NCBI GenBank assembly: GCA_964291285.2
Contig: OZ219788.1
Coordinates: forward strand, 315,136 to 379,135
Length of the DNA stretch: 64,000 nt
Source of the DNA: Alphaproteobacteria bacterium
GTDB taxonomy: Bacteria; Pseudomonadota; Alphaproteobacteria; Bin95
Direction of reading: 5' to 3'
Shown: piece after piece, positions 9,846 through 32,979 of the stretch
Numbering within the stretch: the stretch's first letter is position 1
How the letters are laid out: every line of letters begins with the position of its first letter
Translations under genes and position numbers: made by a program
The notes under the pieces: generated by a model
The model's database searches: none
Told to the model about the DNA's origin: nothing
The model's input: only the letters and a program-made list of their open reading frames with translations

Positions 9846-11154
9846 TCAGGCTTTGTGTTCGCGCCAGTTCGGCGGCAGCGCGATGCCGACGGCCTGGAAG
9901 ACCTTTCCGACCTGGCCCTCGACATGGGTGCGGGTGGTGATGCGCTTGCCGTCCTTCTCGATGGTGGCCTCTTGCAGGCGGTCGAGATCGCGGATCAGGT
10001 CGTCCCATTCGACGTTGACGTTGGCGGCGGCGCAGCGGTCGGCCAGTTCCTTCTGGAGGACGAGCGCGAGGAAGGAGCAGAAGACGTGGCCGCGGATCGC
10101 GGCGTCGCAGGAGTGGTAGATCGGGCGGGTGCGCAACTGGGCCTTCGCCCGGCGGAACAGGTCTTCCACCGTGAGCAGCTCCCGGTAGCGGAGCACGGCA
10201 TTGAGCGGCGTCATGCCGGCGTTGGTGCGCAGCACGAAGATGCCGTCGAAGCGGGCCTCCTCGGCGAGCTTGCCGGCGTCGATCTCGAACGCCTTGCCCG
10301 CGCCCGTGCGGCGCAGATAACGCCGGTAGGCGCTGTTGCCGATCAGCGCTTTCTCGCCGTCCGCAAGGCGGCGCTGGAGGCCGTCCACCACGGCCTGCCG
10401 GTCGGCGCGGTCCTTCTGTGCCTCCGCCTCGTTGCGGCACACGATGTAGCGCGCGCCGCCCACCGTGACTTCCTTCACGAACAGCTGCGTCTCGCCGCGC
10501 GGACGCTTGAGGAGCAGCGGCACAAAGGGCTTCGTGTCCTTCAGCACCACCTCGCGGACCACCTTCGTGCGCCGCTCGCGCGCGCCCAGGATGTAGTCCA
10601 GCCCCCGCTCTTCCAGCGCCGCTATCGTCGCCGCCGAGATCATCCCCCGGTCCGCCACCACGCACACACGACCGATCCCGAAGCGTGACCGAAGACGGTC
10701 CACGATCGGCAGCAGCACCCTGGTGTCGGCCGTGTTGCCCGGCAGCATCTCCGTGCACACAGGCCGGCCCTCGCCGTCCAGCACCACCGCCAGAACCATC
10801 TGGCGCAAGTCCGGGCGATGGTCCTTCGAGTAGCCGTGCGCGCCCAGCGTCTCGCCGCCCGCGCCGTGGAACGACAGCGTCGTGGTGTCCATGAACACCA
10901 CAGACAGGTCGGTGAACAGGTCCCGCCTGTGCTCGAACAGACGCTCCTCGATCCCGTCCTTCACGCAGCGCGGCGCAAGCGCGCCTTCCGCCGGCGCCTC
11001 CAGCTCCTCCCCGAGCCAGGCCATCGCCCGATACAGCTGATGAAGCCGCAGCCCCTCGATCCCCTCGATCGCGTAGTCGGCCATCCACTTCTCGCACGAC
11101 CGGTCCGAACCCGACACGAACAGACGGTGCAGAACGCTCACGAACACCGCGCGC
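9846..11154 (-). pseudogene. IS1634-group transposase, C-terminal 432 codons (detached from its N-terminus by the IME)
   Basis: ...AVFVSVLHRLF...DTTTLSFHG...YSKDHRPDL...VVADRGMIS...IYH.... It continues exactly from the N-terminal fragment at 32969-33305. Confidence 0.85.
11144..11154. repeat. 11-bp direct repeat ACACCGCGCGC, putative attL core of the IME
   Basis: The identical 11-mer occurs at 32969-32979. Both lie at the two break points of the IS1634 transposase reading frame. Confidence 0.7.
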
Positions 11155-11273
11155 CGCACCTGTCGGTTCTAACCTGTTGATACAGCGTCTGTTTTTCCTC
11201 GTGCAACAGCGGGTCAGGGGTGCAACTGCAACCGCAATGTGCCCCGCCTGCAAATGGATGCAGGAGGAAATCC

Positions 11274-12395
11274 ATGCCCATCGTACGCCTCAACGAGAGC
11301 CGGATCGAGGCCCTTGAATCCCGAAAGGCGCCATATGATGTCCGCGACGCAGAGCTGAAGGGCTTCGGCGTCCGCATCCTGCCTTCGGGCAGCAAACGCT
11401 ATTTCATTCACAGCCAGCATCAGGGCCGGCGCCTCTGGAAGACCGTGGGCGACGCCGGCAGCATCGGCTTCGACGAAGCCCGCCGGCAGGCAACGGAACT
11501 GCTTGCCGCCATCCGGCGCGACGAACCCGCCGCGCTTCCCGAAGACAGGCTCTTCGAGGCCGTGGCGGAGGAAGTCTTCTCCCGCTACGGGCGGCACTGG
11601 AAGCCCGGAACCATGAAGGTCAACCGGGGCTATCTGCGCAGCACGATCCTTCCCCGGTTCGCCGGGATGAACATCGCCGACATCACGAAAGCCGACGTGC
11701 AGCGCTGGTTCGCGTCCCTTCATGCCACGCCGGTGGCGGCCGACCGGTCGGCGCCGATCCTGTCCGTCATCATGCGCCAGGCCGAACTCTACGGCTACCG
11801 CCCCGAGGGCAGCAATCCCTGCACCGGCATCCGCCGCTACCGGCGCAAGGGACGGGAGCGGTTTCTTTCGGCGACCGAGCTTCGCCGCCTCGCGCGCGTG
11901 CTCGGAGATCATGAAGACCGGCATTCGCGCTGCGTCGCATTCATCCGCCTGCTGCTGCTGACCGGCTGCCGCAAGAGCGAGATACTGACCCTGCAATGGT
12001 CCGACTGCCGCGAGGGGCGCCTGTTCCTGCGCGACGGCAAGACCGGGCCCCGGACCGTGTGGCTGTCCTCGCCCGCGCGCGCCGTCCTGGACGGGCTTGC
12101 CCGGCAGGGCAAATGGGTCTTTCCCTCGCCGCAGAGGCAGGGGCCGGTATCCGCAACCGTCTTCGAGACCTTCTGGTGGCGGGTCCGGGAGGAGGCGGGG
12201 ATTGCCGATGTGCGCCTGCATGACCTTCGGCATACATATGCCAGCATCGCCATCATGGGGGGCGAGACCGTCACGGCGACGGCGCGGCTGCTCGGGCACA
12301 ACGATGCGCAGACAACACTGAAATACGCTCATTTGTCCGACCGTTCGGTCCGGGAGGCCGCCGACGCCCTCGGCTCCATCCTCGGGGAGAGCTGA
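11274..12395 (+). CDS. tyrosine recombinase / phage-type integrase with a DUF4102-like N-terminal arm-binding domain (373 aa)
   Basis: AGGAGG lies 6 nt upstream. MPIVRLNESRIEAL...YDVRDAELKGFGVRILPSGSKRYF.... Catalytic region ...LLLLTGCRKSEIL...HDLRHTYAS...LLGHNDAQTTLKYAH. Confidence 0.9.
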   Translation: MPIVRLNESRIEALESRKAPYDVRDAELKGFGVRILPSGSKRYFIHSQHQGRRLWKTVGDAGSIGFDEARRQATELLAAIRRDEPAALPEDRLFEAVAEEVFSRYGRHWKPGTMKVNRGYLRSTILPRFAGMNIADITKADVQRWFASLHATPVAADRSAPILSVIMRQAELYGYRPEGSNPCTGIRRYRRKGRERFLSATELRRLARVLGDHEDRHSRCVAFIRLLLLTGCRKSEILTLQWSDCREGRLFLRDGKTGPRTVWLSSPARAVLDGLARQGKWVFPSPQRQGPVSATVFETFWWRVREEAGIADVRLHDLRHTYASIAIMGGETVTATARLLGHNDAQTTLKYAHLSDRSVREAADALGSILGES

Positions 12396-12398
12396 TCC

Positions 12399-13544
12399 AT
12401 GCCGAGGCGGAAAAGGCTCACCGACGCCGGCATCGCAAGGCTTCGGGCCGGGGCGCGCGAATATACGGTCTGGGATACCGGGGTCGCCGGGCTCGGGGTC
12501 AGGGTTCGCCCCTCCGGCAGCCGGACGTTCATCTACCATCGCAAGACGGCCGACGGGTTGCGGAAGATGTCCTTCGGTCCGGCAGCGCTGCGCAAGGTCG
12601 CGGATGTGCGCCGCGCCTGCATGGAGGCCGCGACCGGGGCCGCCGACGCGGACGCAGCCTGTCGCGAAAGGGCGCCGCTGTTCGGGAATTTCGTGGCCGG
12701 TCAGTGGGAGGCGGATTGTTTCGAGCGCTGCAAGCCGTCCACGCAGAGGAACTTTGCCGGCATTCTGAGACGGCAGCTGCTTCCGGCCTTCGGCTCCCGG
12801 CGCCTCGACCGCATCACCCGCAGCATGGTGCTCCGCTGGTTCGAGGCTTGCAGCCGGACCGCGCCGGGGGCGGCCAACGCCGCCCTCGCCCTGCTGCGGC
12901 AGATCCTCAACCACGCCATCGCCTGCGGGTACATCGAAACCAACCCGGTGCGCGGCATCCGCCGCAATCCCGGCCGGAAGATGACGCGCTTCCTGTCCCG
13001 AGAGGAAATCACACGGCTTCACCGTGTCCTCGATCGGTATGCGCAAGGGACGGTCTCGCAGGCTCAGCAGGCCGACATCATCCGCCTGCTGCTGCTCACC
13101 GGCTGCCGCAAGGGTGAGATCGTGTATTTGCGCCGGGAGGAAGTGAAGGACGCCCGGCTCGAACTTGCAGACGCCAAGACGGGACCGAGAACGGTCCTGC
13201 TGAACGCGCCGGCACGGGAGATCGTCGCGCGCCGGATGCGGCAGGGAAACGGCCCCTGGGTCTTCCCCTCCGTCAGGGACCCGTCCCGGCCCCGATGCCG
13301 GGAGCTTCCCCTCTGGTATCGGGTTCGGCGCGAGGCCCGCATAGAGGACGTGCGCCTGCACGACCTTCGCCATACCGTCGCCAGCCAGGCGGCGATGAAC
13401 GGCGTGCCGCTGCCGGTCGTCGCTCGCCTGCTCGGACACGGCAATGTGCGCATGACGATGCGCTATGCCCATGTCGGAGACCGCGAGATCGAGGCGGCGG
13501 CGGAACGGGTCGGGCGGGCGATTGCAAACTTGATGGCGAAGTGA
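12399..13544 (+). CDS. second tyrosine recombinase / integrase, a paralog of the preceding gene (381 aa)
   Basis: It starts 3 nt after the int1 stop. ...EYTVWDTGVAGLGVRVRPSGSRTFIY...LLLLTGCRKGEIV...HDLRHTVAS...LLGHGNVRMTMRYAH. Confidence 0.9.
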   Translation: MPRRKRLTDAGIARLRAGAREYTVWDTGVAGLGVRVRPSGSRTFIYHRKTADGLRKMSFGPAALRKVADVRRACMEAATGAADADAACRERAPLFGNFVAGQWEADCFERCKPSTQRNFAGILRRQLLPAFGSRRLDRITRSMVLRWFEACSRTAPGAANAALALLRQILNHAIACGYIETNPVRGIRRNPGRKMTRFLSREEITRLHRVLDRYAQGTVSQAQQADIIRLLLLTGCRKGEIVYLRREEVKDARLELADAKTGPRTVLLNAPAREIVARRMRQGNGPWVFPSVRDPSRPRCRELPLWYRVRREARIEDVRLHDLRHTVASQAAMNGVPLPVVARLLGHGNVRMTMRYAHVGDREIEAAAERVGRAIANLMAK

Positions 13545-13624
13545 TCGAGCTTCGCCGATGGCATACCGTTTCTCACGGCCCCGGAACACGCTCCCAGGCA
13601 TGACGACACGGCACACGGCACACG

Positions 13625-16762
<3,138 letters not shown>

Positions 16763-17314
16763 CGGGAAGGGACAGTCAACTGGTTCATGACGCGACGGAT
16801 CATCAGGTCTTTGTTGGCCGGTGCGCTCTCGGCAATCAACGGGGTGAGCCGGTCAGCACTCGGGGATCAAGCCGGCGCGCGACGCACTCCTGCGCCAGAT
16901 AGGGCAGGAAGAGGAGCGCAGATGCGTTTGTAGTCGTCGGTGACGGACGGCCCTTACCAATGAAGTAGAGCAGATGCACCACCTCCTCCTCACAGCTGCG
17001 GCAGAGCGGTTCGCCGGACATGGTCCGCTTGATGTTGCGACGATAGCGTCCAGGGCATCGCTGCGCTGGTTGCCGAAGAGCGGCGATGCCTCGCCTCTCG
17101 CTACGAGAACGCGTCTCGGGTCCTTGATGGCATGGGTTGCGCGGTCGGCGTCGAGTGCACCGACAGCCGGTTTCACGCCGGCCGGCCTTTCCATGCGGTT
17201 TTCGTCGTATTCCAGGAAAAGACGCCACATCTCGGTATTGGCCGAGCTGATGTCGGAAACAGCCGAGCCGGTATCGCCGGCCGGTTCAACCATATTCCGG
17301 ATTATCTTCGTCAT
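16763..17314 (-). pseudogene. decayed or frameshifted ORF(s) of unknown function between orf380 and hsdR
   Basis: Good GC3 coding signal runs from ATG 17314 (MTKIIRNMVEPAGDTG...EMWRLFLEYDENRMERPAG...DALDAIV). It then switches frame near 17020 (RNIKRTMSGEPLCRSCEEEVVHLLYFIGKGRP...). No single intact frame spans the 523-bp gap. Confidence 0.3.
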
Positions 17315-18428
17315 CGCGCAGGACGCTCTCCAGTTGGGGGTTCAGCAGCTTCCATCGCTGACGTACCCGCTCGAGATCACCCTTGAGGATGACCGGCACC
17401 CGGTCCTTATGGGCCTGAACCACGCGCTCGTAATCGGCCTGTTCCAGAACCGCCGCGACCGACTGCCATTGCCCGTCGATTTCGGTGCGGAACCTGATCG
17501 TCCCGTCCACATCTTCCTCTTTGCGTTCCAGGACACGAACGAAGCCATACAGAAGCACATCGGGCCTTGGCGCACGCTCTCGCAGGGAGCGCGCGGCCTC
17601 GCGCAGCAATACGGCATCCTTCGATCCGAACTGGGAAACCGACGGCGGCGTCTTCACCGGCCGCGTCCGTGCCCACGAGACGCTGATATCCAGCTTCGGG
17701 AACGGTTCGACGATTCTGGCAAGCGCCTCACAGAGATTGGCGCTCACCCCGCTGGATACTGCCTCTCCGAAGGCACCGCCATCGTCGGAACCCGCCCGCT
17801 CTGCCGCCCGACGTACCGCGGCCAGCGCCTCGACAAGCCGTTTCGTCATCCGGCGAAAGATCGGCGCGTTAAGGTCATCCGAAGCCTCATCCTCGAACAA
17901 CATTAGCATGGGCGGCGGCATGGCCGGTGTCAGCAATGTCACCACAAAACTGCCCTGGTCCGTCTGCCCAAGCCGCATCTGCCGCAAAAGGTCCGCCGCG
18001 TCCCTGTTTGCACGAGCACGGTACACCGGCCGCGGGTCATGAAGCGAGCACGCCGCCGCCAGCACCAGGTCGCTGGCGCCATCGATCAGGGTCACGCCGT
18101 CGTTCAGTCCCAGGCTGCCGTCGTCGCTCTCCGCCGCCCGGATGCGAATCGCATCGCGGTCCGCTGTCGTGAGCGCACGGTAAACGGTCAACGTGTCCTG
18201 GTCGGCTACCTGCGCGAAGGTCTCGATCAACGCCGCCACGGCACTTGCATAGTCCCCGAGGCGCGTCGTCAGCGGCACGACGATTTCCGGCAACGTGTCG
18301 CCGACATAGATGTCCGAATGCTCGCGATACGAGTCGCAGCGGCTCCAACCCGCGATGCGGGCGTAGGCGGACAGCGCCGCCGGTGAAATCGCCAGCAGCG
18401 CGTCGCGGTCTTGAATGCTGACTTGCAT
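17286..18428 (-). CDS. hypothetical protein (380 aa), no domain recognised; partner of the DUF4365 protein
   Basis: The ATG shares one base with the upstream stop (TGATG at 18428). Protein-like composition with high GC3. I could find no catalytic motif. Confidence 0.7.
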   Translation of the reverse strand: MQVSIQDRDALLAISPAALSAYARIAGWSRCDSYREHSDIYVGDTLPEIVVPLTTRLGDYASAVAALIETFAQVADQDTLTVYRALTTADRDAIRIRAAESDDGSLGLNDGVTLIDGASDLVLAAACSLHDPRPVYRARANRDAADLLRQMRLGQTDQGSFVVTLLTPAMPPPMLMLFEDEASDDLNAPIFRRMTKRLVEALAAVRRAAERAGSDDGGAFGEAVSSGVSANLCEALARIVEPFPKLDISVSWARTRPVKTPPSVSQFGSKDAVLLREAARSLRERAPRPDVLLYGFVRVLERKEEDVDGTIRFRTEIDGQWQSVAAVLEQADYERVVQAHKDRVPVILKGDLERVRQRWKLLNPQLESVLRDDEDNPEYG

Positions 18429-18928
18429 CAGAGTTCTCCCGTCCTGGATTGCTCCATCAGCCTTTGCAGGGCCTCAACATCGAGTATGTTCCGCTCGGGG
18501 ATATGAACGGTAACGGTCTTCTGACCGGCGACTTCATCATGGCCCCGTTGCAGGCTCAGCCAGTAGGCGCGACGCCGCAGGATGAGAGCCTCCTCGGTCA
18601 CGGACAACCAGCGCGCTTCGTCTTCGGGAAGCTCCAGCACCACGAGCAGCCGAGGCGTCTGCGTCCCGGCACGTAGATCGTCGTAGTTCTTCAAGGACAG
18701 TCGAAACGGCAGGACGCCGTTTCTTGGCCCGCTGAGATCGGCAGTGGCCTTGAGTTGCAAGTCGAGGGCCGGGCGATATGTACCTCCCGCCTGAACCCGC
18801 AGGTCGACGCTGTCGCGGTCCGGCGCCGGCACAGAAGTCAGAAACCCTGCACGCGCCGCCAGCGCCTTGACATAGACCAGGGACAGCCCCTCCTTCCTGT
18901 CAGGAGAGGTGAGCAGGCCGCCAGTCAT
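18428..18928 (-). CDS. DUF4365-like protein (166 aa, predicted restriction-endonuclease-like fold)
   Basis: EGLSLVYVKALAARAGF...DRDSVDLRVQ...ALDLQLKAT matches my recollection of the DUF4365 pattern (D...(D/E/Q)xK core). There is a 4-nt overlap with the hsdS stop. Confidence 0.65.
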   Translation of the reverse strand: MTGGLLTSPDRKEGLSLVYVKALAARAGFLTSVPAPDRDSVDLRVQAGGTYRPALDLQLKATADLSGPRNGVLPFRLSLKNYDDLRAGTQTPRLLVVLELPEDEARWLSVTEEALILRRRAYWLSLQRGHDEVAGQKTVTVHIPERNILDVEALQRLMEQSRTGEL

Positions 18929-20544
18929 GCAATCTCTCCGACAATCTGTTCAGCATCCCGAAGTCGGACTTCGCCGGACATCAGTTTGGGAAGCAGCCCG
19001 TGTAGAATGCCGACGAGAGAATGACTTTGCCGGGAAGCCGCACTTGCTCGAGCGATAGGCGGACGAACCAGATTTCCGAACGCGACGGCGACTTGCTCTG
19101 TCGGGCACGCAAGTGGGAATTTTTGCAAGGCTTGGGCCTGCACCCGCTGGCGACCGCTTGTACCGGTCATGTTCTGAATGGCAAATTCGCGGAAACGAAA
19201 ACTTCGGGCGAGACAATATGCGAATTCATACGGAAGCGGAGACTTGGGGCGCAAGACAATGTACTCTGTGGATCCCCAACCTACCTCGCCTTCCTGCAAG
19301 AAATCGACATAGGCCGTCTTTCCGTTCTCTAGGCATGGCGTGATACGAGCCATAAGTGTATCGCCGTTCATGAACTTTGTCCCCGAGCCAAAGGGACGAG
19401 CAGAGATGGTATCAGGTATATGTCCCTTGGCTGGCATGTTCGCCATATCGAGGTACGGAGCGGTTTGCCCCTTGGGCAAACGCCGCAGGGGATTGACTGA
19501 GATCAGATCGTCGAGCGGGCTCACTTCCCACCCCTCCGGTATCTCGCCGATTTCGGAATTGGCGAAGCGGTCGGGAAACAGTTTCCATATTTCGGGAGGC
19601 AGATAGGGCGCACGCCCTTCCATCTTCGCCCGGACCGGCCCGAAATCGACGAACCAGTCCTTGAAGATCGCCCGCGCCATCGCCTCCAGCGTCCCGTTCA
19701 TGCGCCGGTTCAACGCGATCTTGTCGTCCAGCGCGCCGAGGATGCCCGCAATCGCCCGCTGCTCGGGAAGGGGTGGTAAATCGATGTTCAGATTCTTGAT
19801 ATCCGAGGGCCTTATTGACGGATAAGCCGAAGTACTGTGTTCGGCAATGGTATGAAGCTGGTTGATAATTCGTTCCTGAACAAGAAACCAATAGATGAAA
19901 CCAGTGTCAGCAATGTCTTCACGCGCACGAAACACCGCAAAGCCAGTAGATGCGAGAAAATTCTCTGGAACATCCCGTAGCAACCCGAAGTGCCTCTGAT
20001 TGGGCCGGACGGTTGAGAATACGATGTCGCCCGGTTCAATTTTGCGACGCGCACGGTCAGGCAGCTTGTCTTTGTTCAGCTTCAGGCATTGAATCCTCTC
20101 TATTCGGTTATCTGTGATGCTGCCTGTATCAAGGTAATTGACAAATGGCCAATCTTCCTTCGGGGAATATGTTGCTTCATTCATTACGGTGCATTCGCCA
20201 AGTCGTATCCTGTGCCAATGATTGGCAGGAACTAGCGGTTTGGCCAGTACCACATGGTCTCGCTCAATTTGCTTCCGGAAGGAGCCCGGCACGTCATCCC
20301 AGACGAACAGGTCCACCCGGAATGGGAGACTGCTTTCCTCCAACGCTTCCCGGAGGTCGGAAACGGCGCGCTTCTGTTCGGGCGTCGCGAACACCACCAT
20401 ATCGATGTCGGATTGGGGGCGAGAGGTCCAACTGACCCGGGAACCGTAAGCCCAAGCCTTGGTGTCCGGGAGATGGCGTTCGAGCAACGCCAGAATATCT
20501 TTGCGTTGCCCGGCGGTGATGTCGATGGAGAAGTTTATTCCCAT
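18925..20544 (-). CDS. hsdS: fusion protein (539 aa): N-terminal minimal nucleotidyltransferase (MNT) domain joined to a type I restriction specificity subunit HsdS
   Basis: aa 1-~105 carry the MNT signature AYGSRVSWTSRPQSDIDMVV. The rest is a two-TRD HsdS with conserved LPPLPEQRAIAGILGALDDKIALNRRMNGTLEAMARAIFKDWF and a C-terminal LLPKLMSGEVRL. It is one continuous frame with no internal stop. Confidence 0.8.
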   Translation of the reverse strand: MGINFSIDITAGQRKDILALLERHLPDTKAWAYGSRVSWTSRPQSDIDMVVFATPEQKRAVSDLREALEESSLPFRVDLFVWDDVPGSFRKQIERDHVVLAKPLVPANHWHRIRLGECTVMNEATYSPKEDWPFVNYLDTGSITDNRIERIQCLKLNKDKLPDRARRKIEPGDIVFSTVRPNQRHFGLLRDVPENFLASTGFAVFRAREDIADTGFIYWFLVQERIINQLHTIAEHSTSAYPSIRPSDIKNLNIDLPPLPEQRAIAGILGALDDKIALNRRMNGTLEAMARAIFKDWFVDFGPVRAKMEGRAPYLPPEIWKLFPDRFANSEIGEIPEGWEVSPLDDLISVNPLRRLPKGQTAPYLDMANMPAKGHIPDTISARPFGSGTKFMNGDTLMARITPCLENGKTAYVDFLQEGEVGWGSTEYIVLRPKSPLPYEFAYCLARSFRFREFAIQNMTGTSGRQRVQAQALQKFPLACPTEQVAVAFGNLVRPPIARASAASRQSHSLVGILHGLLPKLMSGEVRLRDAEQIVGEIA

Positions 20545-20951: not shown

Positions 20952-20973
20952 GTACAGCCCTTCCGCACCGCTT

Positions 20974-21221
20974 TCACCAGGAAGAGCGGCGCAAGACCAG
21001 CGCCTCAACGGTTCCGGCCGCATCCGGCTCCCCGTCAGGCAACCCTTCGGGGTCGCCGTGCTTTCCCTGCCAGGACTCCGTTCCCGTATCGAGGTCGATC
21101 TTCTTCACAATCATGCGCTCGGGAGACAGATCATCGTAACCCCCTTCGTAGCCGTCCACCACGACATGCAGCACGGGCGGATAGCCGCCAGGCAGCTCGA
21201 TCAATTCCGCAACCGTCATGC

Positions 21222-21225
<4 letters not shown>
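20974..21225 (-). CDS. small hypothetical protein (83 aa)
   Basis: The start overlaps the hsdM stop (ATGA at 21222-21225), which suggests translational coupling. Acidic, protein-like sequence with no recognisable domain. Confidence 0.4.
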
Positions 21226-22826
<1,601 letters not shown>

Positions 22827-23044
22827 GCTGCGCCCTTTCCGGTCAAATCCTGCGCCGCCACCCTAGGTCTCCGCTTGCCGGACATTTCCCCGAAGGCGCT
22901 CCGCGATGGTCGGCGCAAGGCAACCTTTAGCGCGCCGCCAGACAGCCTGCAATCGACCCCATGAGACGACCGGCGCGGGAACGGCTTATGGCGGATCCCG
23001 GCCCGGCGCAAGAAAACGCCGATGCTGCCCTTGCCCGCGCCTGC

Positions 23045-26000
23045 TCATTGTGTGGCGATTCCGTACAATTTTTGAAACCGGAGGTCGCCAGAAATTCCGC
23101 AATTCCCGGCGCACAGAGCGTCAAGCAATTTCTTGAGACCGGGCTTGTTATAGTCCGGCAGAACATCGATTACCTTATTCAGCACCTTGAGCAATGGCTC
23201 CGGATGCTGTTTCGCGCAGCCATTCCTGTTGAGAACGAAGAAGCTATGCCCGACGCCGCCGCTGCCTTCCACGGGCCGCAAATATGTCAGCCACCATTCC
23301 GCCGCCTGAGGAAATGCATCGCCGCACTCCGCAAGCATCTTCAGTATCGCTTCCGAGATCTTCGCAGTATTGCGGCCCTGCTCTCGCGGCCAGTAGCTGC
23401 AAAGCCAGCGGTGCAATTTCTCGTCCCAGATCCGCTGCCGTTCGTCAGGTGTCCCGGTGAGGCGCCGCCTCAGGCTCCCAAGCACAGTCACCAGCCCTTG
23501 TTCGGGCATGGGGGCGACAACGTCGCGAATCTCTTTCTCAGTCAGATCTCCCGGCGCATCAAGGCAGACCGCCATGAACAGGTCTCTCAGTCGGCGCATT
23601 CTCCGGTCTTCAAGCCTGTCGTCGTGCAGGATTTCGAGAAACGGCGCCCTGATGGCTTTCAGGAGGTCCGGACCCAGACCTGGCGACCAGCTGTATGCAG
23701 ACCATAGGTCGACAGCTTCCTGTGACTTCAGGCAGGCGAGGCGCGCGATCAGGTGCTGCCGGGTCCACTCAGCGTCGACCGCAAACAGCGGGCGCAATCT
23801 GGTCGCCAGAAGCACGCGGCCTGGATGCCCGAGCGGGTCTTCGGCCATGGCGTCGAAATACGGCCGGACCGGTGGAGGGAATCCCGCTCCGGCTGGCAGT
23901 TCGTATTTCGACAGCCGGGTCAATGCCGCTTCCGCCAGCTTTCCGGCCGGATGGTTCAAGGCGTTCGTCAGGGTTTCATTCTGGTCGGCCATCTCCGATT
24001 CGCCCTCGCCCTTTCCGACCCAGGATTTCATCCAAAGGACACCGAATTCAGCTTCCCGATCGGTTTCCCATGCGTCCGCAAGCTGTTTCACGAAGCCCGC
24101 GACGGCGGACGCTACCTCGCCGAACAGCTCGCCGGGAGCCTCGGCAAGGATTCTTGCCGCACAGGCGTGCAGTTCCGCCGGCCGCTTTGGTTCCGGCAGC
24201 TCCCAGAGGAAATCCCGCCAGTACCCTGCAGGCCATTTGCCCTGTTTTCCGAGCTGTCGCAGCGCGGAAAAAACCTCTGCCGGTTTCCGGGCAGCCAGCC
24301 CTCGCAGTCCGTCCTGAACGATTTCCCCGGTATCGAGCGCCACCACGATGTCTTCGACCGATCCCTTGAGGAGATGCTTGGGCGCATAATCTTCGATGCC
24401 GATTCGTTCATACTTTACCTCGCCAAAAAATTCATCGATCTCTCCCTCGATTTCCTCCATTTTCTGGGTTATTGTTTCAGCCATCGCTCTTGATTTCTTG
24501 TCCAGCTTTATCCCGGACATGCCCAGCATGTGCAGGAACAATGCCTGTTCTTTGCGCAACCCTTCGTCACTGCCGAAGGATTCCCGGATTTTATTCGATT
24601 TCGGTCCAGCGTGAATTGCGTCAATGATGTCGCTGCGGAGATCTCGGGGTAACCGCTTGCCCGCCAATCTCAGAAAACGCATCGTTTCGCGCCGCATATC
24701 GAAGTCCCAGAGACCGAGGTTTCGACCTCCCAGAAGCAATTTCTGGGCAAGCCGAATATCGGCTCTCGGGTTTTCGGTCAGCGCGTGCAGCGCCAGCCTC
24801 CCGAACAGCGGCTCTTCGGAGTCCGCCCAGCGAAGGAGAAGATTGTACGCGCGTCGGCTCTCGTCGGGAACCAGCGCAAGATAACTGTCCCGCGCCAGAT
24901 CGATGAGGCGGGTCCAGTTGTCGAAATCGTTGTTTTGCTCGTGAGGCGCGATCGACGGCCGATACAGGTACGACCGCTGGTAGACATTGCCATCGGCCTT
25001 ACCCAGGGAAAGGGCGTGTTCGAGATGATCGGTCAGCGTCTCGGCGTGTCTCGAAAGCACTTCCCGGTCATCGAGAATAGCCTTGAATAGCGCCCAAACC
25101 CTGTCGCATGCCGACATCAATTCGAGATGTCCGCATGTATCGATGGGCTGCGGCGCTTGCGGGGTATTCTCGTAATTCAGCCGTACTTGCCGGACCATGG
25201 AAAGACCCGGTCGGACGACGAGACGCGGCCGGATACTCTCCATGACCTTGTCCTCGATGAGCCTGCGTTCGTCGGGGGACATCGCGGCCCGATGACGGTC
25301 GGAAAGCCAGAGCCCGTTCCAGGGATCATCGGGCCTGCTGCCCAGAAGAACGGTCCAGAGCAGTCGCAGCCTGTCGGGAATGTCCGGAAGCGCGGAAGCC
25401 CGCTCAGTCAGACGGCTCTCGACCTGCTGGCGAAGAAGAGGGTGGAGATGAGCGCCGTTCCGAAGCGCCCAGGCCAGCAGTTGCGGCACATGCAGATGGT
25501 TGGCCAGCCAAACCGAGAGATGGTGCCTTGTCCTATCCAGATTGTAGGGATTCACCGATTCGAGACCGGTATCTACGAGATGCCGGTCCGTCCCGTTAGC
25601 GGCAGAGCGCAGCAGACCCTTTTCCGCGAACATGTCGAGCCACTTCTCGAACTTTGCATGGTCCTCCTCGTTCGACATGGGAGGGGCTTCGGCAAGCGCC
25701 TGTGCGGCCGATGCGTCCTGTAGCGCCCAGACGACCCGTTCCACAACCGGCCCGGCCGGCATCTTGTTAATCTCGTCGATGGCGATCCGGGAACGGGCTC
25801 GAAGGGGATCGCTTCGGATCCGCGCCCATTCAATCAGTGTGTCTGCGAGAAGGCGGTGTCCGTCCCGCTCGTCATAGAGGATCGGTTCGACATTCTTCGC
25901 GACCCAGGCGTCACGCGCCCTGGATATCCCGGCTTCGGAACCATCCATGGCGGCGAATGCCCAAGCCATTCCGAAGCCCGCGCCCTTTGACCGCTCGGCG

Positions 26001-26701
26001 GCAAGGGCGTCGACCATGTACCCCATGACAGGATCGTCGAGGCTGTAGCCGACGAAGACGACCGAGAATTCGCGAAACAGTTCGGTGACGAACCTCGCCG
26101 CCCAGCGCTCGGTCAGATATGCGCGCCCGAAATCTGCCGCGGTCAGCACCAGGTTCGAGCCATCTTCCTTCGGTGCGATGCGGCCGTGCAGATGCACCAG
26201 GCTCGACCAGGCATGAGGCTTGGGTATCGGAAGCCGGGGCGCGGCATCGACCGTCAGGGATTCTTCCGCCGCTTCGGCAAAGCGGTTGTCGAAATTGGTG
26301 GTAACAAGTCGGACGCCGCTGTCGAAATTGGTGGTAACAGGTCGGACGCCGCGTTCAGTCCGCGACAGCTTGAGCAATGCCTTGTGGAGTTTCAGGTCAC
26401 CGCTTCGCGGTCGAGAAAGCCGGTCGATGACCGCACCCCGCAAGTGGTTCGCGCCCAGGCGGCGTTCCAGAAGCCCGAGCGCCCTGTCCCAGGCCCCGCT
26501 ACATAGCGCTTGCCGTTCGGCGGGATCGGGTTCGATGTGGTTGGCATCATATACATGTTTCACGAGGGCTTTGAAGCTCGGCAGGTCAGACCCTTCTGCC
26601 ATCGAGACCCCGGCGCCGCAGAAGAAAACGACATTGCCGTCGTCCAGCCCGTTCAGGAGGGGCGCCGGAATGTCCGGGCCGTCTTCAATCAGTTCAGGCA
26701 T
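23045..26701 (-). CDS. giant SIR2-like (SIR2_2-type) domain protein, 1218 aa, with a ~950-aa helical C-terminal region of unknown function
   Basis: N-terminal VVFFCGAGVSMAEG...VTTNFD...LVHLHGR...VFVGYSLDDP is the prokaryotic defence-type sirtuin pattern. It is co-directional with, and 218 bp upstream of, hsdM. Confidence 0.8.
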   Translation of the reverse strand: MPELIEDGPDIPAPLLNGLDDGNVVFFCGAGVSMAEGSDLPSFKALVKHVYDANHIEPDPAERQALCSGAWDRALGLLERRLGANHLRGAVIDRLSRPRSGDLKLHKALLKLSRTERGVRPVTTNFDSGVRLVTTNFDNRFAEAAEESLTVDAAPRLPIPKPHAWSSLVHLHGRIAPKEDGSNLVLTAADFGRAYLTERWAARFVTELFREFSVVFVGYSLDDPVMGYMVDALAAERSKGAGFGMAWAFAAMDGSEAGISRARDAWVAKNVEPILYDERDGHRLLADTLIEWARIRSDPLRARSRIAIDEINKMPAGPVVERVVWALQDASAAQALAEAPPMSNEEDHAKFEKWLDMFAEKGLLRSAANGTDRHLVDTGLESVNPYNLDRTRHHLSVWLANHLHVPQLLAWALRNGAHLHPLLRQQVESRLTERASALPDIPDRLRLLWTVLLGSRPDDPWNGLWLSDRHRAAMSPDERRLIEDKVMESIRPRLVVRPGLSMVRQVRLNYENTPQAPQPIDTCGHLELMSACDRVWALFKAILDDREVLSRHAETLTDHLEHALSLGKADGNVYQRSYLYRPSIAPHEQNNDFDNWTRLIDLARDSYLALVPDESRRAYNLLLRWADSEEPLFGRLALHALTENPRADIRLAQKLLLGGRNLGLWDFDMRRETMRFLRLAGKRLPRDLRSDIIDAIHAGPKSNKIRESFGSDEGLRKEQALFLHMLGMSGIKLDKKSRAMAETITQKMEEIEGEIDEFFGEVKYERIGIEDYAPKHLLKGSVEDIVVALDTGEIVQDGLRGLAARKPAEVFSALRQLGKQGKWPAGYWRDFLWELPEPKRPAELHACAARILAEAPGELFGEVASAVAGFVKQLADAWETDREAEFGVLWMKSWVGKGEGESEMADQNETLTNALNHPAGKLAEAALTRLSKYELPAGAGFPPPVRPYFDAMAEDPLGHPGRVLLATRLRPLFAVDAEWTRQHLIARLACLKSQEAVDLWSAYSWSPGLGPDLLKAIRAPFLEILHDDRLEDRRMRRLRDLFMAVCLDAPGDLTEKEIRDVVAPMPEQGLVTVLGSLRRRLTGTPDERQRIWDEKLHRWLCSYWPREQGRNTAKISEAILKMLAECGDAFPQAAEWWLTYLRPVEGSGGVGHSFFVLNRNGCAKQHPEPLLKVLNKVIDVLPDYNKPGLKKLLDALCAGNCGISGDLRFQKLYGIATQ
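26288..26353. repeat. 33-bp in-frame tandem duplication (2 copies, 2 mismatches) inside the SIR2 core
   Basis: GTCGAAATTGGTGGTAACAAGTCGGACGCCGCT is followed by GTCGAAATTGGTGGTAACAGGTCGGACGCCGCG. On the coding strand these give GVRPVTTNFDS and GVRLVTTNFDN. Confidence 0.9.
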
Positions 26702-26794
26702 GGCGAATTGTACCGTCGTTCATTTGGCGCCGGCCTCATGCGGGTCATCGGGTAATGTTGCCGCCTCCCAGTAGCGGTTTCTGTAGAATTTCGC

Positions 26795-26826
26795 TGCACT
26801 GCTAAACTCGTGCACTGCTAAACTCG
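26795..26826. repeat. 16-bp perfect tandem repeat TGCACTGCTAAACTCG x2 in the divergent SIR2/relaxase intergenic region
   Basis: Read directly. It is followed by the related TGAACCCGTGCACCCG. It could be an operator, an iteron or an oriT accessory site. Confidence 0.8.
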
Positions 26827-27125
26827 TGAACCCGTGCACCCGAAGCGTCTTTAACCTTCATAGCCCGATTCGCAATCCGCTTGCTGATCCTGTCGGGAGC
26901 GCCGCACAGCCCGGGCCCGGCATAGGCGCCAGCAGCGAACAGGCGGCGCAGCCAGAGAGGATGAATGGCGCATGGATTTCAGCACGGGCGTCGCGACGTC
27001 GTTTCCCTAAATACCCGTGCCGAGCCTCGGCCTTGAGCCTTTCCGGCAGCTGGCACGGCGGTCACGGCTTCGGCGGCCTCTGGACGGTTGACACGCCGCC
27101 GTCCGCGATGGGGTAAGCTCCGCCG

Positions 27126-30100
27126 ATGGTGGCGACGGTCTTCAACCTGACCTCGGCTTCCTCGACGGTGCACTATTTCCGGCGCGAGGGGCACGGGCTC
27201 GGGCCGAACCTGCCGGCGAACGACGACGAGGCGGGCGACTACTACGCGCGCAAGGATGACGAGCACCGCAAGGCGAGCCGGTGGCGGGGCAGCGGGGCGG
27301 CGGCGCTGGGGCTGACGGGCCATGTCGAGCCGGTGGAGTTCCGGCGTGTGCTGCAGGGATACGTTCCCGGCACGGACATCCGGCTGGGGCGGCTGCGCGA
27401 CGGCGAACACGAGCACCGCCCGGGTGTGGACATCACGTTTTCGGCGCCGAAGTCGGTGTCGCTCGAGGCGCTGCTCGGCGGTGCGGGTTCGGCCAGGGCG
27501 ATGCGGGCGCACGATGCGGCGGTGCGGGCGACGCTGGACTACATCGAGACACGGCTCTTGCGAACCCGGCGCTGGAGCCGCGAGGAGCGGCGCTCGGTGC
27601 AGGTGAATGCGCCCATGCTGGTGGCGGCGACCTTCCGGCATATCACGAGCCGCAACAACGACCCGCAGCTTCACACCCATTGCGTGGTCGCGAACATGAC
27701 GCGCGACGGCGGGCAGTGGCGGAGTGCGGAGACCGGTCTGCTGCGCCGGTCGGAGAAGCTGGTCGGGGCCTTCTACCGCAACGAGCTGGCGCACCGTCTG
27801 CGCCGTGAGGGTTTCGCGCTGCGTCCGTCGATGATCGGGCGGGTTCCGGGGTTCGAGATCTCGGGCTGGCCGCGTGCGGTGCTGGAGGCGTTCTCGAGCC
27901 GGCGGCAACAGATACTGGCCTACATCCGGGAGAAGGGCTGGCGCTACGATGCGCACACCGCGCAGGCGGCGACGCTGGCGACGCGGGCGCGCAAGAACGA
28001 GCCGCGCCGGGCGGAGCTTGAGGCGCTGTGGCGGGCGTTTGCCGAGGAAAATGGCCTCGCCAGGCGGACGCTGCGGAAGATCGGGGTGCGGCATGCGGCG
28101 CCGCCGACGGCGCTGGAGATCGCCTGGCGGGCTCTTGAGCAGCTGGAGGAGCGGGCGAGCGTCTTCCCGGCGCGGGACGCGCTGGCGCTGGCGCTGGCGC
28201 TGGCGCATTCGCCCGGCCTCTACCGGCTTGAGGAGATCGAGGGGGCCTTTGCGGAGCTTCGACGGGACAAGCATTTGCTGCCGGCGATCCGGCGCGGGGC
28301 GGGCGAGGCCTGGACGACGGCGCGGGCGGTCAACGCCGAACGCGAGGTGCGCGAGCGCACGATCGCCAATATCGGTGCTGTCAGGGCGCTCTCCGAAGCT
28401 CCCGTCCCCGGAGAGGCGCTGGAGGGCCTGACCGGGGGCCAGCGCGAGGCGGTGCGGCTGATCCTGGAGAGCCGGGACCGGGCGGTCGGGGTGCAGGGCC
28501 ATGCGGGCACCGGCAAGACGGTGATGCTGCGCCGGGCCGTGTCGTGCATGGGAGAAAGGCGGGTGCTGGGACTGGCGCCGTCGGCCTCGGCGGCGCGGAC
28601 GCTGTCGCGCGAAACGGGCCTCGCCTGCCGGACGCTGCAATGGTTCCTGACGCGCTGCCAGGAGGTGTCCGACGGGGTGGCGGACGCAAGGACGCTCGCC
28701 GCGCTGAGAGAGCGCCATGGCGGCGCGGTGGTGGTGGTGGTGGACGAGATGTCGCTGGCGGGCACGGCGCAGGCGCGCGCGCTGCTGCGGATTGCCGAGC
28801 GCCTCGACATTGCCCGGCTTGTGCTTGTGGGCGACAGCCGGCAGCTGCGGGGCGTGCAGGCGGGCCAGCCCTTCCGGCAGATGCAGCAGGCGGGCTTGGG
28901 CGTCGCGGAGATGGACGAGGTTCGCCGGCAGCAGGACCCGGACCTGCTGGCCGCCGTCCAGGACATGATCGAGGGCGAGCCGGGCGCGGCGCTGGAGCGT
29001 CTCGGAGGCAACCTGCGGGAACTGCCGGCGGAGGAGATCGCGGGCATGGCGGCCGCGCTCTGGCTGCGGCTTTCGCCCGGGGCGCGGGCGGGTACGGCGT
29101 TGCTGGTTCCGACGCGCGCGCTCAGGGCCGAGGTCGAGGAGGCGGTGCGCGAAGGCCTCGAAGCCGAGGGCGCCCTGCACGGGTCCTCCATCGGGATCGA
29201 GACGCTCGTGCCCCTCAACCTCACGCGCGCGGAGACGGGGTCGTGCGGCTGATACCGAGCTTCTCCCACGGCCCCTCAACCTCACGCGCGCGGAGACGGG
29301 CGACGTGCGCAACTGGCGCGAGGGCGACATCGCGCTCTTCAACCGCGAGCGGAAGAACTACCGCATCCGCAAGGACGACGCCTGCACGGTGATGGAGGTG
29401 GAGGAGGACCGGGTGATCCTCGCCCATCCCGATGGCCGGCCGCGCCACCTGAAGCCCGGCGGCGACCTGCGCTACCGGCTGGACCTGTTCGAGGCGAAGA
29501 CGCTGCGGATCAGGGAGGGCGAGCAACTGCGCTGGACGCGCAACGACAGGGAGCGCGGCCTCGTCAACGGCGACCGTGTGGAGGTGGCCGCCATGGGAAC
29601 CGGAGCGCTCCGCATGCGCCTCTCCGACGGGCGGGAGATGCGATTCGCGCGCGACGACCCGCAGCTTCGTCATCTTGCATACGCCTATGCGTCCACCGTG
29701 CATGCGGCGCAGGGGCAGACGCACGACCGTGTGGTCGCGGTGCTGGACACAGGCGCGGGGCCGCTGGTGAACCAGCAGACGCTCTACGTGCAGCTCAGCC
29801 GCGCGCGGGAAGAGGCGCTGGTGCTGACCGACAACCGCGAGCAGCTTGTGGAGACGCTGGAGGCGAACACGGGCGAGCGGCTGACGGCGCTGGAAGCCAT
29901 CGGCGAGACGGAGACGATGAAGGCGCCGGCGAAGCGGACGGTCTCCGGGGAGGCGGCGTCTGCGTTCCTTGACGGCCTGCGCGCGGAGCGGGAGCGCCGC
30001 GCCGAAGCGGAGGCGGCCTTGCGCCGGCTGGCGGAGGCCGAAGCAGCGCTTGCCGCAGCCCGCGCCCATGCGCAGGAAGCCGGATACACCTTCGCCGCCC

Positions 30101-31434
30101 TGCCGGCGGTCGATCCGGACGACGGACAGACCCTTCAGGACCGTCTCGCGGCGGCCAAAATTGTGCAGGAAGCGGCGCATGATGTCTCGGCTGCCGCCCA
30201 TGCGGTGCTGGAGGCGGCGAAGGCGGCGGACCGCGTCCCGCCGCTCGACGATGCCGCGATGGAGGCGGCGAAGACCGGCGAAACCGAGGCAGCGGCGCGC
30301 CTTGTGGCATACCGGTCGCTGGAGACGGCCTTGACGGCGGCGAACAGGGCGTCCGGACGGCTGGCGCCCGCAGGCGCGCTCCGCGACAAGGATATCGACG
30401 GGGCTTCGATGCAGCGCCATGGCGCCGCCGCCCGGGAGGCGGCCGCCGCCTTCGACGCCCTCGCGCAAAAGGCGCGGGCAGCGGGCGAGGCGGCGCTGGC
30501 CCGGCGCGCGCGGGAGAGGGCTTCGGACCTCGGGCTGGCGGCGCTGCACTGGAGCTACAGGCTGGCGGGCCACCGGTTCGCGGTGGCGCGGCTGGCCGAG
30601 CGGGACATGGCGCCGCCGCACACGGTCGGGGACGTGCGGCGCTGGCAGGACCTGCGCCAGCGCCAGGCGGACGCGCGGACCGGGGCGGCAGCCGCGGCCG
30701 AGGCGGTCGCGCCGGAGAGCGCGGACGCGGCGGCCCGGTGGCGTGAACAGGCGGCGGACTACCGCAAGCAGGCCGGCGCGATACGCGGCTCGCTGGCGGA
30801 ACTGGAGGGGCTGAAGACGCTGGTGCGGACCGCGGAAGCCGCGTCGGACGACGCGGCGGCATGGAGCGCGGCGGCGGGCGCGGCGGAGACGATCCGGAAA
30901 GGCTCCGGCCGGGGTCTGGAGGACGAGGCCGCGCGCGTGCGTGACGAGGAGGCGCGCCGCCGACAGGAAGGGCGCGAGGCGGCGCGGGCACGTTTCGAGA
31001 CCCTGAGCTCGGAATGGGACGCGTTCGAGAGGAAGGTCAGGGCCGGGGGGCGGGTCGGCTTTGCGGACAAGCGCAGCCGGCAATATGTCGACCGCGCGCG
31101 GCGGCTGGAGGCGGACCCCGATCTCGATGCGGAAGCGAAGGAGACGCTCGCGGCGTTCCTGCACGAGCACGATGTCGTGCGCCCGAAGGTCGTCCGGCGC
31201 TGCCGGGAGCTGTTCGCGCAGTGGAACGCGGTCCGCGCAACGGCAAGGGCCCGCGGCGTCGGCCGGTTCATCCCTCCGGAGAGCGCGGAGGTCGTTGCGG
31301 GGATGCGCAAGCTCGCCGCCGGGAGCCCGGAGCACCTGACGCGCAGACAGAAGGAGACATTCGAGACGATCACCGAGGAATACGCCCTCCATGTCGAGCG
31401 GCAGCGGACATGGGTGATGACCATGAGGCCGTGA
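27126..31434 (+). pseudogene. MobF-family conjugative relaxase / helicase (TrwC/TraA-like), disrupted by a 61-bp insertion
   Basis: Relaxase motifs (DYYARKDDEH; HITSRNNDPQLHTHCVVANM) and a RecD-like helicase Walker A (VQGHAGTGKTVM). The frame breaks at 29240-29271. Removing 61 nt gives 4248 nt = 1416 codons. Confidence 0.85.
29210..29300. repeat. 30-bp perfect direct repeat (29210-29239 and 29271-29300) flanking a 31-bp unrelated spacer inside the relaxase gene
   Basis: GCCCCTCAACCTCACGCGCGCGGAGACGGG occurs twice, 61 bp apart. Both copies encode PLNLTRAETG in the respective frames. Confidence 0.9.
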
Positions 31435-31785
31435 GCGAGCGGGCCGGACCCCGGCGGCGGGCGCTGTTGTCCTCATCGGTCGGACAGCAGGGCGACGGGA
31501 CGACTGCAACCATGGCCGAAGACCCTGGCAGAAGACGGGGAACGCGTCAGCTTCCGGGAACGCCGCCTGCCCGCGACGCGAGAGCCGCATGTCCGGCGCT
31601 GCAACGGCCATGCAATTCAGGCCCGGAAGCCACATGATCCACCATGCAATCCGGCAATATGTGACACAGTGAATATTGTATAGCCATTCCCGATTCAACA
31701 ATGAAAACAGAATGTTGATGCCATGACTGAACTATATAATATATCCACAACATCCGTAATGAAGGCCATATGACCTCCTGTCCGG

Positions 31786-32331
31786 TCATCCTGCGCCGCC
31801 CGCTTTCCCGCCACCGGCCCGCATCGCCGCCCGGCGGGCGATGTCGGCAGCGCGCTCCGGGCCGGTGACCGGCGCCAGCAACGCTTCCATCCCGTCCCTT
31901 CGGCCCTCGCGCGCCATTTCGTCGAGGCGCGCCTCGAACAGCAGCGCGACGGTCTCGCGAAGCCCGGCGGGCGCATCGCCGGAAAGGCCCGACAGCACCG
32001 CCGCCGCGCCTCGCACGGCCTTCCTTCCGCTGCCGGAACCGAAGCTCGCTGGCAAGGAATGCGAGCGCCTCGGCCATCGTCACCCCGCTGCCGGGCAGGG
32101 GGCCGGCAAGCCCGTCGCCGAGGGACGCAAGCTGGACCGCGCTGTCGTGCAGGGCGGCTGCTCGTCGCCCGTCAGCGCCATCCGGCAGTCCTCGCCCAGC
32201 ACCTCCCTCAGGATGAAGGACGAGGTCTTCATCCCCGCTTCCTCCGCCAGCACCCGGATCGCCCACCAGTCCGACTGCGGGCAGGTGATGCAATACTGCC
32301 GTGCGCCGCTTACGTCAGCCCTCCCGCCCAT
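31786..32331 (-). pseudogene. RHH/MobC-like putative relaxosome accessory gene with about two frameshifts
   Basis: The GC3 signal passes through three frames: ...QYCITCPQSDWWAIRVLAEEAGMKTSSFILREVL..., then AALHDSAVQLASLGDGLAGPLPGSGVTMAEALAFLASELRF, then GSGSGRKAVRGAAAVLSGL...LLFEARLDEMAREGRR.... Confidence 0.35.
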
Positions 32332-32635
32332 CGTCGGCCACAGACGCCTCGGCTTCCTCCACCAGCCGCCGCCAGACACCGCCCCGGCCCTCGTCCTCGA
32401 AGCGCATGCGCTCCGCCAGAACGAGAAGGCGCAGGTCCACCAGCGCGCGGCGCCTCACCGCCAGGGAGAAGTCTTCCGCGATCTCCGCCGCCAGCTCCTC
32501 AGGCGCGAGCCCGCGCGAGATCAGGAAGTCCGAGGCCGACATGTCCGCCCTGCCGGCGCGGCTGCGGACCAGGCGCCAGTCGCTGTCGGTCGCCATCACC
32601 GAGCGCGGTCTCTTCCTGCCGTCATCCGCCGCCAT
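32315..32635 (-). CDS. RHH/MobC-like small protein (106 aa), a paralog of the N-terminus of the following gene
   Basis: GGAGAGG lies 4 nt upstream of ATG 32635. The motif SVMATDSDWRLVRSRAGRADMSASDFLISRGL resembles plasmid mobilisation RHH proteins. An upstream GTG at 32692 is also possible. Confidence 0.4.
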   Translation of the reverse strand: MAADDGRKRPRSVMATDSDWRLVRSRAGRADMSASDFLISRGLAPEELAAEIAEDFSLAVRRRALVDLRLLVLAERMRFEDEGRGGVWRRLVEEAEASVADDGREG

Positions 32636-32968
32636 CACACCTCTCCGGCCCCGGGACACAGGCATGACCCGTGCCTTTTTACCGTGAACCACAGGAACGA
32701 TACATCAATGTTGTATCCATGTTCATACGGTATGACCTTCTCCTGTCCATTCCTTGCCTTGCTTTCAGACAGGCACAGGCTCAAGTCCCTACAAAATTCC
32801 CAATCCGTTACCGAAGTGCCTCACTCTTCCAAATCTCCTACAAGAATGATCATGACACAAGGTGCTTGCATCTACCTCCATGATCTCCTATCATGAGCCA
32901 CCTTGCGAGGAAGTCAGTGCTTCGGTCAACAGGGTGTTCCTATAGCCAAGAATTCGACTATCTTTGGC

Positions 32969-32979
32969 ACACCGCGCGC
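32969..32979. repeat. 11-bp direct repeat ACACCGCGCGC, putative attR core of the IME
   Basis: Identical to 11144-11154. Confidence 0.7.

Follow-up and report, generated by a model that had tools for sequence, protein, structure and literature searches.

Genomic islands with a P4-like (DUF4102/Arm-DNA-bind_3) integrase, among them the integrative mobilizable elements (IMEs) of the SGI1 type (reviewed in PMC5704250), typically combine a terminal integrase gene and short att-core repeats at both junctions with a relaxase but no mating-pore genes, and with adaptive or defence cargo. Here, we describe an island that shares these traits and lies in a 64,000-nucleotide stretch of contig OZ219788.1 (assembly GCA_964291285.2, positions 315,136 to 379,135) from an alphaproteobacterium, hereafter referred to as the window, where it splits the transposase gene of an insertion sequence (IS) of the IS1634 family. 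It differs from SGI1-type and P4-like islands in carrying two tandem paralogous integrases rather than one. In addition, the family to which it belongs is multicopy within genomes, and it targets a 5-nt motif plus a lineage-specific stretch of 5-6 nt in arbitrary open reading frames (ORFs) rather than a tRNA gene or the 3' end of a conserved gene. The data presented below indicate that the 11-bp repeat bounding the island is a true att core, composed of a fixed pentamer, ACACC, and a lineage-specific overlap, and that it is not a transposon-style duplication. The island was very probably integrated through site-specific recombination mediated by its own integrase functions, at a site that the IS contains by chance.

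Elements with more than one recombinase are also known, including the RIT elements with three tyrosine recombinases (YRs), the SEs with the gene set intA-tfp-intB-srap, the GInts with four genes (ginABCD), and Tn554 with tnpA, a large tnpB, and tnpC (PMC10214605, PMC3414803). As in these elements, the YR genes of the window island are adjacent, probably co-translated, and located at one element end, and there is some target specificity. In contrast, the window family has two YRs of ordinary size with P4-type N-termini, followed directly by cargo, and contains none of the gene sets listed above; no partner resembling tfp, srap, or tnpC was recognized in the window island. Moreover, the 'fingerprint' and 'footprint' hexamers of SEs differ, whereas in the window family the same 5-6 nt flank an element on both sides. 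The literature searched contained no account of an element of this type with two integrases.

The sequence ACACCGCGCGC occurs exactly twice in the window, once at each junction of the split transposase gene, compared to a chance expectation of 0.26 copies per 64 kb (mean over shuffles of the window). In a tblastn search with the rejoined protein, residues 1-112 of the transposase mapped to 33305-32970 and residues 108-544 to 11159-9849, both on the minus strand. In silico removal of 11155-32979 (21,825 bp, corresponding to the island and one repeat) yielded a stop-free transposase ORF of 1635 nt that encodes 544 aa and reads ...GFGFAVERAVFVSVLHRLF... The best homologue of this transposase, P0121 (98% identity, 544 aa), is encoded on a metagenome contig, L038, where the IS is intact. 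The L038 copy is 97.3% identical to the rejoined IS, aligns to it without gaps across the junction, and contains the site once, as ACACCGCCCGC, which differs from ACACCGCGCGC at one base. These results agree with a preliminary description of the locus, which had reported the paired repeats and the restored reading frame and had proposed the search for an empty IS copy as a check. That description also held that the rejoined gene matches an intact copy within the window, which proved incorrect: the other IS copy in the window comprises the terminal 556 bp only (1-556, transposase residues 394-544), is truncated at the window edge, and stops short of the position at which the island is inserted.

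The two IS halves end in shared terminal inverted repeats, CCCAACTT(C/G)AACAGT (9747 and 33478), and the pair is flanked by one target duplication of 5 bp, TCAAG, implying that they represent one insertion that was later split. With a DDE_Tnp_1 transposase (Pfam) of ~540 aa, terminal inverted repeats, and a target duplication in the 5-6 bp range, the interrupted element has the characteristics of the IS1634 family, and copies from Acidiphilium with 73% identity carry this family annotation in PLSDB. The IS itself interrupts the 3' end of an IS66 tnpC gene (7809-9770 and 33479-33640), and removing it together with one TCAAG restored a tnpC of 539 aa with a canonical C-terminus. There are, then, three levels of nesting, with the island inside the IS1634-family IS and the latter inside IS66. 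A search of PLSDB plasmids with the rejoined IS and the island returned no related island, only the 73% Acidiphilium IS copies and scattered matches to restriction-modification (R-M) genes, and an exact 29-mer scan of JGI metagenome contigs gave no match to the IS side of the junction.

Related loci were collected from a scan with one genome per species (35 loci), from protein look-ups (2 loci), and from a metagenome scan (7 contigs, 5 of which are family members). In all 44 related left ends, which derive from uncultured Alphaproteobacteria, homology begins at the base equivalent to window position 11155 and follows the consensus CGCA(C/T)CT-N1-2-CG(G/A)TGCTAA... The pentamer ACACC is found immediately outside the left end in 41 of the 44 junctions, with variable bases between. 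Homology at the right end runs to 32968-32978, so that both ends of the island fall where the preliminary description had placed them. A profile derived from the window identified two right ends each in L007 and L014, while the right end of L024 was located by searching each locus for its own core. These right ends finish in ...GGC ACACC, except for that of L024, which finishes in ...TCT ACACC, and each ACACC is followed by the same 5-6 bases as at the matching left junction. This gave five complete elements with both ends, bounded by the direct repeats ACACCGCGCGC (window), ACACCGGGCAG (L014), ACACCGGCATC (L024), TGGCACACCGGTCA (L007), and CACACCCGGTC (L008/L007b). The core structure of the island is thus common to a family, and together with the integrase genes at one end and the relaxase gene, it substantiates the view that the locus is an integrated mobile island with att-like repeats.

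The left end also contains a palindrome, GCACC-N3-4-GGTGC, at window 11155-11169 and correspondingly in L001-L045. In 8 loci, the two arms have changed in concert to GCATC/GATGC, a pattern that would fit either a symmetric protein site or a hairpin. The stem resembles, and is in fact the same as, that of the R388 oriT IR2 hairpin (compared with the R388 sequence as found in IncW plasmids), and the palindrome may represent an integrase site, an oriT element, or both.

Elements of the same lineage at different sites bear on the nature of the repeat. L004 and L005, which are 100% identical over 2.4 kb and occupy different sites, have an 18-bp flank in common, CGGGAGGACACCCCGCGA. Similarly, L028 and L029, also 100% identical over 2.4 kb and at different sites, agree at 15 of 16 flanking positions, GGGCTACACC(G/C)TGATG, and two near-identical pairs each agree at 10 of 11, namely L026 and L027, ACACCA(C/T)CGGG, and the window and L002, ACACCGCGCG(C/G). 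Because identical elements carry the same variable bases at different sites, the repeat is not a duplication of arbitrary target bases. Instead, as judged from these alignments, the variable bases travel with the element lineage, as would be expected of an attP overlap that requires a matching attB.

These comparisons weigh heavily against the alternative that the 11-bp repeat is a target-site duplication, generated by a transposition-type staggered cut and fill-in, with ACACC as a mere target preference. The 5-6 variable bases do differ among lineages, individual genomes contain several copies of the elements (at least five in OZ244041.1 and at least seven in CAXXPN01), and their insertions within ORFs are transposon-like. 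However, neither a DDE transposase nor any other transposase is encoded in the island, the right ends of the elements themselves finish in ...ACACC, and the shared variable bases of identical elements, within a common flank of up to 18 bp, are not what such a cut would leave behind. We consider a target-site duplication to be most improbable.

It is also conceivable that integration is of the heterology-tolerant Tn916/CTnDOT type, with ACACC as the sole requirement and the coupling sequences identical by chance or through repair. The family resembles CTnDOT/NBU-type elements (PMC2817482) in that a short conserved motif, here ACACC, abuts a variable crossover region and some mismatches at its edges are tolerated. 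Single mismatches were indeed observed at the first or last variable base: the otherwise 100%-identical L028 and L029 differ at the first base in attL, and L007 and L008 each show a mismatch between their two ends at the sixth. Yet the differing 5-7 nt flanks of Tn916 and CTnDOT were not found, since at least five of the six variable bases are the same at both ends in 5/5 complete elements, which are either identical or one edge base off. Sister copies also carry the same bases, whereas coupling-sequence elements normally have unrelated flanks, and the integrases are P4-like rather than of the IntDOT type. With the same variable segment at both ends and in sister copies, recombination looks homology-dependent, and a heterology-tolerant mode of integration is very unlikely. 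The mismatches suggest instead some tolerance at the edges of the overlap, which may offer a route for overlap drift and element retargeting.

The reading we favor, an att core recombined by the element's integrases, leads to the following proposal. Integration most likely would have occurred by ordinary tyrosine-recombinase site-specific recombination, in which a circular attP (right end-ACACC-GCGCGC-CGCACCT...left end) recombined with a chromosomal site where ACACC precedes the same 5-6 bases. The invariant ACACC is presumably an integrase half-site, and the lineage-specific overlap would be the segment in which strand exchange needs homology. If the element is competent for excision, the predicted circular junction is ...CTATCTTTGGC-ACACCGCGCGC-CGCACCTGTCGGTTC..., and the repaired IS would read ...CTCACGA-ACACCGCGCGC-TCCACCGCG...

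Several observations weigh against this proposal. The sequences that flank the overlap, GGCACACC and CGCACCT, do not form an inverted repeat, and to the right of the overlap the target side is not conserved. ACACC and the left end are 6 nt apart in 18 loci, 7 nt apart in 21, and 8 nt apart in a single locus, a spread that is unusual for a fixed overlap and that does not allow the cleavage points to be placed. The set of elements with both ends comprises only five, and neither a circular form nor an empty site from the same strain was seen; a scan with the attP pattern retrieved 7 metagenome contigs, 5 of them with left junctions of the usual family kind and none with homology to the right end upstream. 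Finally, the relaxase gene is broken and no oriT could be assigned with confidence (see below), so that the element is only putatively mobilizable. On the first of these points, the non-inverted flanks and the invariably co-encoded paralogous integrases make a heteromeric arrangement plausible, in which one integrase would act at each half-site, as XerC and XerD do on dif. By this analogy, the two paralogues could each occupy one of two non-identical half-sites around a ~6-bp centre. The likeness has its bounds, as the window integrases are element-encoded and have arm-binding N-domains, there is no dif-like 28-mer, and a role for both proteins is something we infer.

Given the location of the island, the preliminary description had suggested that the integrase targets an IS gene and that the island thereby hitchhikes on a multicopy element. 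On this view, the integrase would have evolved to recognize the IS1634-family transposase gene, and the island would spread along with the IS. The island does sit in an IS with at least two copies in the window, and every identical IS copy would offer the same 11-mer and so multiply the available sites, but even the 97% relative in L038 differs at one core base. Searches with the transposase (tblastn) found the IS1634 gene at 0 of the 44 related junctions. In L002, the closest relative (94% identity in Int1 and 96% in the left end), the same 10-mer, ACACCGCGCG, is used in a flank that is not an IS, and at ~0.26 chance occurrences per 64 kb, several copies of the 11-mer would be expected per genome without any IS. 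Dedicated targeting of the IS is already largely refuted by these data, and we regard it as very doubtful.

What the related elements interrupt instead is a range of unrelated ORFs, as determined by reading the flanks in the frame set by ACACC, and this family does not show the preference for tRNA or conserved genes known from other islands. In several independent family members, a TauD/TfdA dioxygenase gene is cut directly after the Trp-His-Thr codons (TGG CAC ACC) of the iron-binding motif; TauD-family genes are hit in L022, L039/L045, L040, and L023, and two different paralogues are involved. This conserved codon string serves as a recurrent docking site. Further targets encode a luciferase-like monooxygenase (L020), a GMC oxidoreductase (L029), a family-5 solute-binding protein, SBP_bac_5 (L030), and an MBL-fold protein (L013). 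Judging from these flanks, the shared requirement is only ACACC with 5-6 matching nt, a string that the IS contains by chance. Within the IS, there are seven ACACC pentamers, and the only one used is that followed by GCGCGC. A multicopy IS multiplies any site it contains and is in this sense a larger target, and there is no sign of specialization. The window case is an ordinary insertion of an island into a fortuitous site.

The two integrase genes, int1 and int2, lie 3 nt apart at the left end of the island, and the int1 start codon (ATG) is preceded by AGGAGG at a distance of 7 nt. A hairpin in the int1 leader that would sequester this Shine-Dalgarno sequence was considered and dropped, as RNAalifold gave no covariation-supported structure. 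Alignment with XerD and other integrase structures indicated that both Int1 and Int2 retain the catalytic Arg, His-x-x-Arg, His, and Tyr residues. Int2 has the same domain layout as Int1, its N-domain being recognized by eye and from the 38% identity between the two proteins. With an arm-binding N-domain, a SAM-like core-binding domain, and catalytic R-H-R-H-Y residues, both have the characteristics of P4-like (Arm-DNA-bind_3/DUF4102) integrases. Their best matches in PDB and NCBIfam are Xer proteins, far below family cut-offs.

In every related locus of sufficient length and intactness, int2 is found directly 3' of int1; the pair is not visible in L001, in which int2 is interrupted by an insertion, or in L032 and L033, which retain only the 5' part of int1. 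Homologues of Int1 number in the thousands, and the best 120 are all at least 78% identical, those with a name coming from metagenome-assembled genomes (MAGs) of Alphaproteobacteria. More distant homologues (35-41% identity) were found on plasmids of Vibrio, Photobacterium, and sphingomonads, where a record usually contains two matches. An overlapping tandem pair, 39-40% identical to Int1/Int2, is also encoded on the megaplasmid of Shewanella oneidensis MR-1 (L046, 6001-8498), where it is annotated merely as 'site-specific integrase' and 'tyrosine-type recombinase/integrase'. The presence of a tandem pair in a cultured gammaproteobacterium implies that the Int1-Int2 module is old and widespread.

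At a distance of 2 kb to the right of the IS, there is the relic of a related integrase (35184-35840), which matches Int1 residues 93-254 with 52% identity and is truncated by an IS21 with istA/istB (35973-38202). This relic suggests that an older element of the same broad family was once present at this locus. Beside it, outside the island, a second SIR2_2 protein of 1227 aa with the size and domain of Dsr1 is encoded at 38902-42585, so that there are two Dsr1-like sirtuin genes within 20 kb.

The features of the island and its borders are collected in Table 1. As assessed from homology, the cargo is a defence island comprising a type I R-M system, MntA/HepT, PDC-M02, and Dsr1 genes, with a PDC-S23-like fragment between hsdR and PDC-M02B. 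In the ORF at 18925-20544, an MntA-like domain (residues ~20-100) precedes a complete HsdS (residues ~107-537), and a HepT-like gene adjoins; this single ORF could reflect a gene fusion or an overlooked internal start codon. Two small ORFs beside the right end had no match in Pfam, NCBIfam, PHROG, PADLOC, or PDB and could encode accessory DNA-binding or excision factors. L014 contains the right-end module (two small ORFs and terminal sequence) a second time, in inverted orientation, inside the element (14089-15708 compared to 19912-21083), which could be explained by an inversion or by the presence of a nested or partial element. No known RNA was detected in the island by Rfam, and there is no tRNA gene in the window.

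Table 1. Positions of the island, its borders and its genes in the window, and of TauD/TfdA insertions in related loci
Feature	Position	Strand	Basis or remarks
3' part of IS1634-family IS	9747..11154	-	transposase residues ~108-544, stop codon 9846-9848, terminal inverted repeat CCCAACTTCAACAGT at 9747
attL core copy, IS side, ACACC+GCGCGC	11144..11154	+	match to ACACCGCGCGC
Integrated island, 21,814 bp	11155..32968	+	repeats, rejoined ORF, family end homology
Conserved left end and int1 leader	11155..11273	+	palindrome CGCACC-TGTC-GGTTC 11155-11169, then CTAA..TTGATAcAGCG, TGCAAC repeats, Shine-Dalgarno AGGAGG
int1, tyrosine integrase, 373 aa	11274..12395	+	Arm-DNA-bind_3, SAM-like and catalytic domains (Pfam); R..HxxR..H..Y
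int2, paralogous tyrosine integrase, 381 aa	12399..13544	+	~38% identical to Int1; catalytic residues kept
hsdR, type I restriction subunit R	13625..16762	-	database searches
PDC-M02B (17286-18428) and PDC-M02A/DUF4365 (18428-18928), candidate defence gene pair	17286..18928	-	database searches
hsdS with MntA-like nucleotidyltransferase N-terminus, one ORF	18925..20544	-	database searches
HepT-like NTase_sub_bind gene	20535..21023	-	database searches
hsdM, type I methyltransferase	21222..22826	-	database searches
Dsr1-type SIR2 anti-phage protein, 1218 aa	23045..26701	-	database searches
TrwC/MOBF-type relaxase-helicase, split into two ORFs	27126..31434	+	TrwC, AAA_30 and UvrD_C domains
Two small overlapping ORFs (32315-32692, 32080-32331)	32080..32692	-	ribbon-helix-helix-like N-terminal motif; conserved beside the right end in L014
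Conserved right-end sequence	32783..32968	+	ends ...TTTGGC before the core
attR core copy, ACACC+GCGCGC	32969..32979	+	match to ACACCGCGCGC
5' part of IS	32980..33478	-	transposase residues 1-~108, start codon 33305, terminal inverted repeat ends 33478
TauD/TfdA insertions	L022 ~5860-5882, L039 ~8019-8040, L045 ~3185-3206, L040 ~10673-10694, L023 ~9860-9882

The relaxase gene bears on how far the island can be called mobilizable. The element is built like an IME, with a MOBF relaxase and no genes for a mating pore (no T4SS or T4CP domain was detected in any island ORF searched), and in its integrase, its flanking att repeats, and the lack of a conjugative pore of its own it agrees with what defines such elements. 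At present, the gene is disrupted by a 61-bp insertion (29210-29270) that causes a frameshift and a stop. This insertion consists of a 30-bp direct duplication, GCCCCTCAACCTCACGCGCGCGGAGACGGG (29210-29239 and 29271-29300), and 31 bp of filler. Deleting it in silico produced a single relaxase ORF of 1415 aa, and the relaxase of L003, with 91% identity, is without it. The term mobilizable used in the preliminary description needs to be qualified by this interruption.

Similarity to the TrwC/MOBF system of R388 extends to the TrwC and AAA_30/UvrD helicase domains of the window relaxase and to an ATAGCCC upstream of the gene (26860-26866), which is identical to the 3' side of the R388 nic site. 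The motif is preceded by two tandem ~17-bp direct repeats (TGCACTGCTAAACTCG), followed by ...CCTTC ATAGCCC, in a segment (26794-26866) located 260 bp upstream of the relaxase start. In contrast with R388, no good hairpin was found beside this ATAGCCC, and the relaxase ORF is interrupted. The region upstream of the relaxase is not conserved in L003, and ATAGCCC therefore stays a weak oriT candidate. When the left end, the right end, and the region upstream of the relaxase were folded as single-strand DNA, the structures did not surpass those obtained with shuffled sequence.

The surroundings of the island, from the start of the window to ~44.7 kb, are dominated by mobile-element and defence-type genes. 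Positions 1-44700 include the incomplete copy of the IS1634-family IS (1-556), a DUF4096 ORF of the IS5-like kind, a gene for an RTX-repeat protein, IS21, IS66, IS630, a second IS21, and a Phd antitoxin gene. From ~45 kb onward, housekeeping genes follow, encoding a histidine kinase, a DegP-like protease, MeaB, and methylmalonyl-CoA mutase.

For the window itself, the outcome is mainly corrective, in that the island and its att cores are real and the idea of an element that hunts an IS is not borne out. The family behind it is large and apparently unnamed, with tandem P4-like Int1-Int2 genes beside a conserved left end and a conserved right end that stops at ...GGC ACACC. Relatives with more than 78% identity are abundant in uncultured Alphaproteobacteria, and a very abundant dual-integrase family is presently annotated only as 'site-specific integrase'. 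In genomes and MAGs, both ends of its members can be found by a simple rule: ACACC plus N5-6 is to be sought following ...GGC at one end and outside CGCAYCT...CTAA at the other. Defence systems (type I R-M, Dsr1, PDC-M02, and MntA/HepT) are moved by the family, which also disrupts host genes, repeatedly those of TauD-family dioxygenases. It provides a natural system for studying how overlap homology and an integrase pair together set target choice. We tentatively raise the possibility that Int1-Int2 elements constitute an undescribed, widespread class of dual-tyrosine-recombinase elements whose target is set mostly by 5-6 nt of overlap homology beside a fixed ACACC half-site. If this were true, an element whose overlap had changed, as might happen through a mismatched integration, would acquire a new target. 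Such retargeting would explain why near-identical integrases are found in many ORFs and in 5-7 or more copies per genome, that is, transposon-like behaviour achieved through site-specific recombination.

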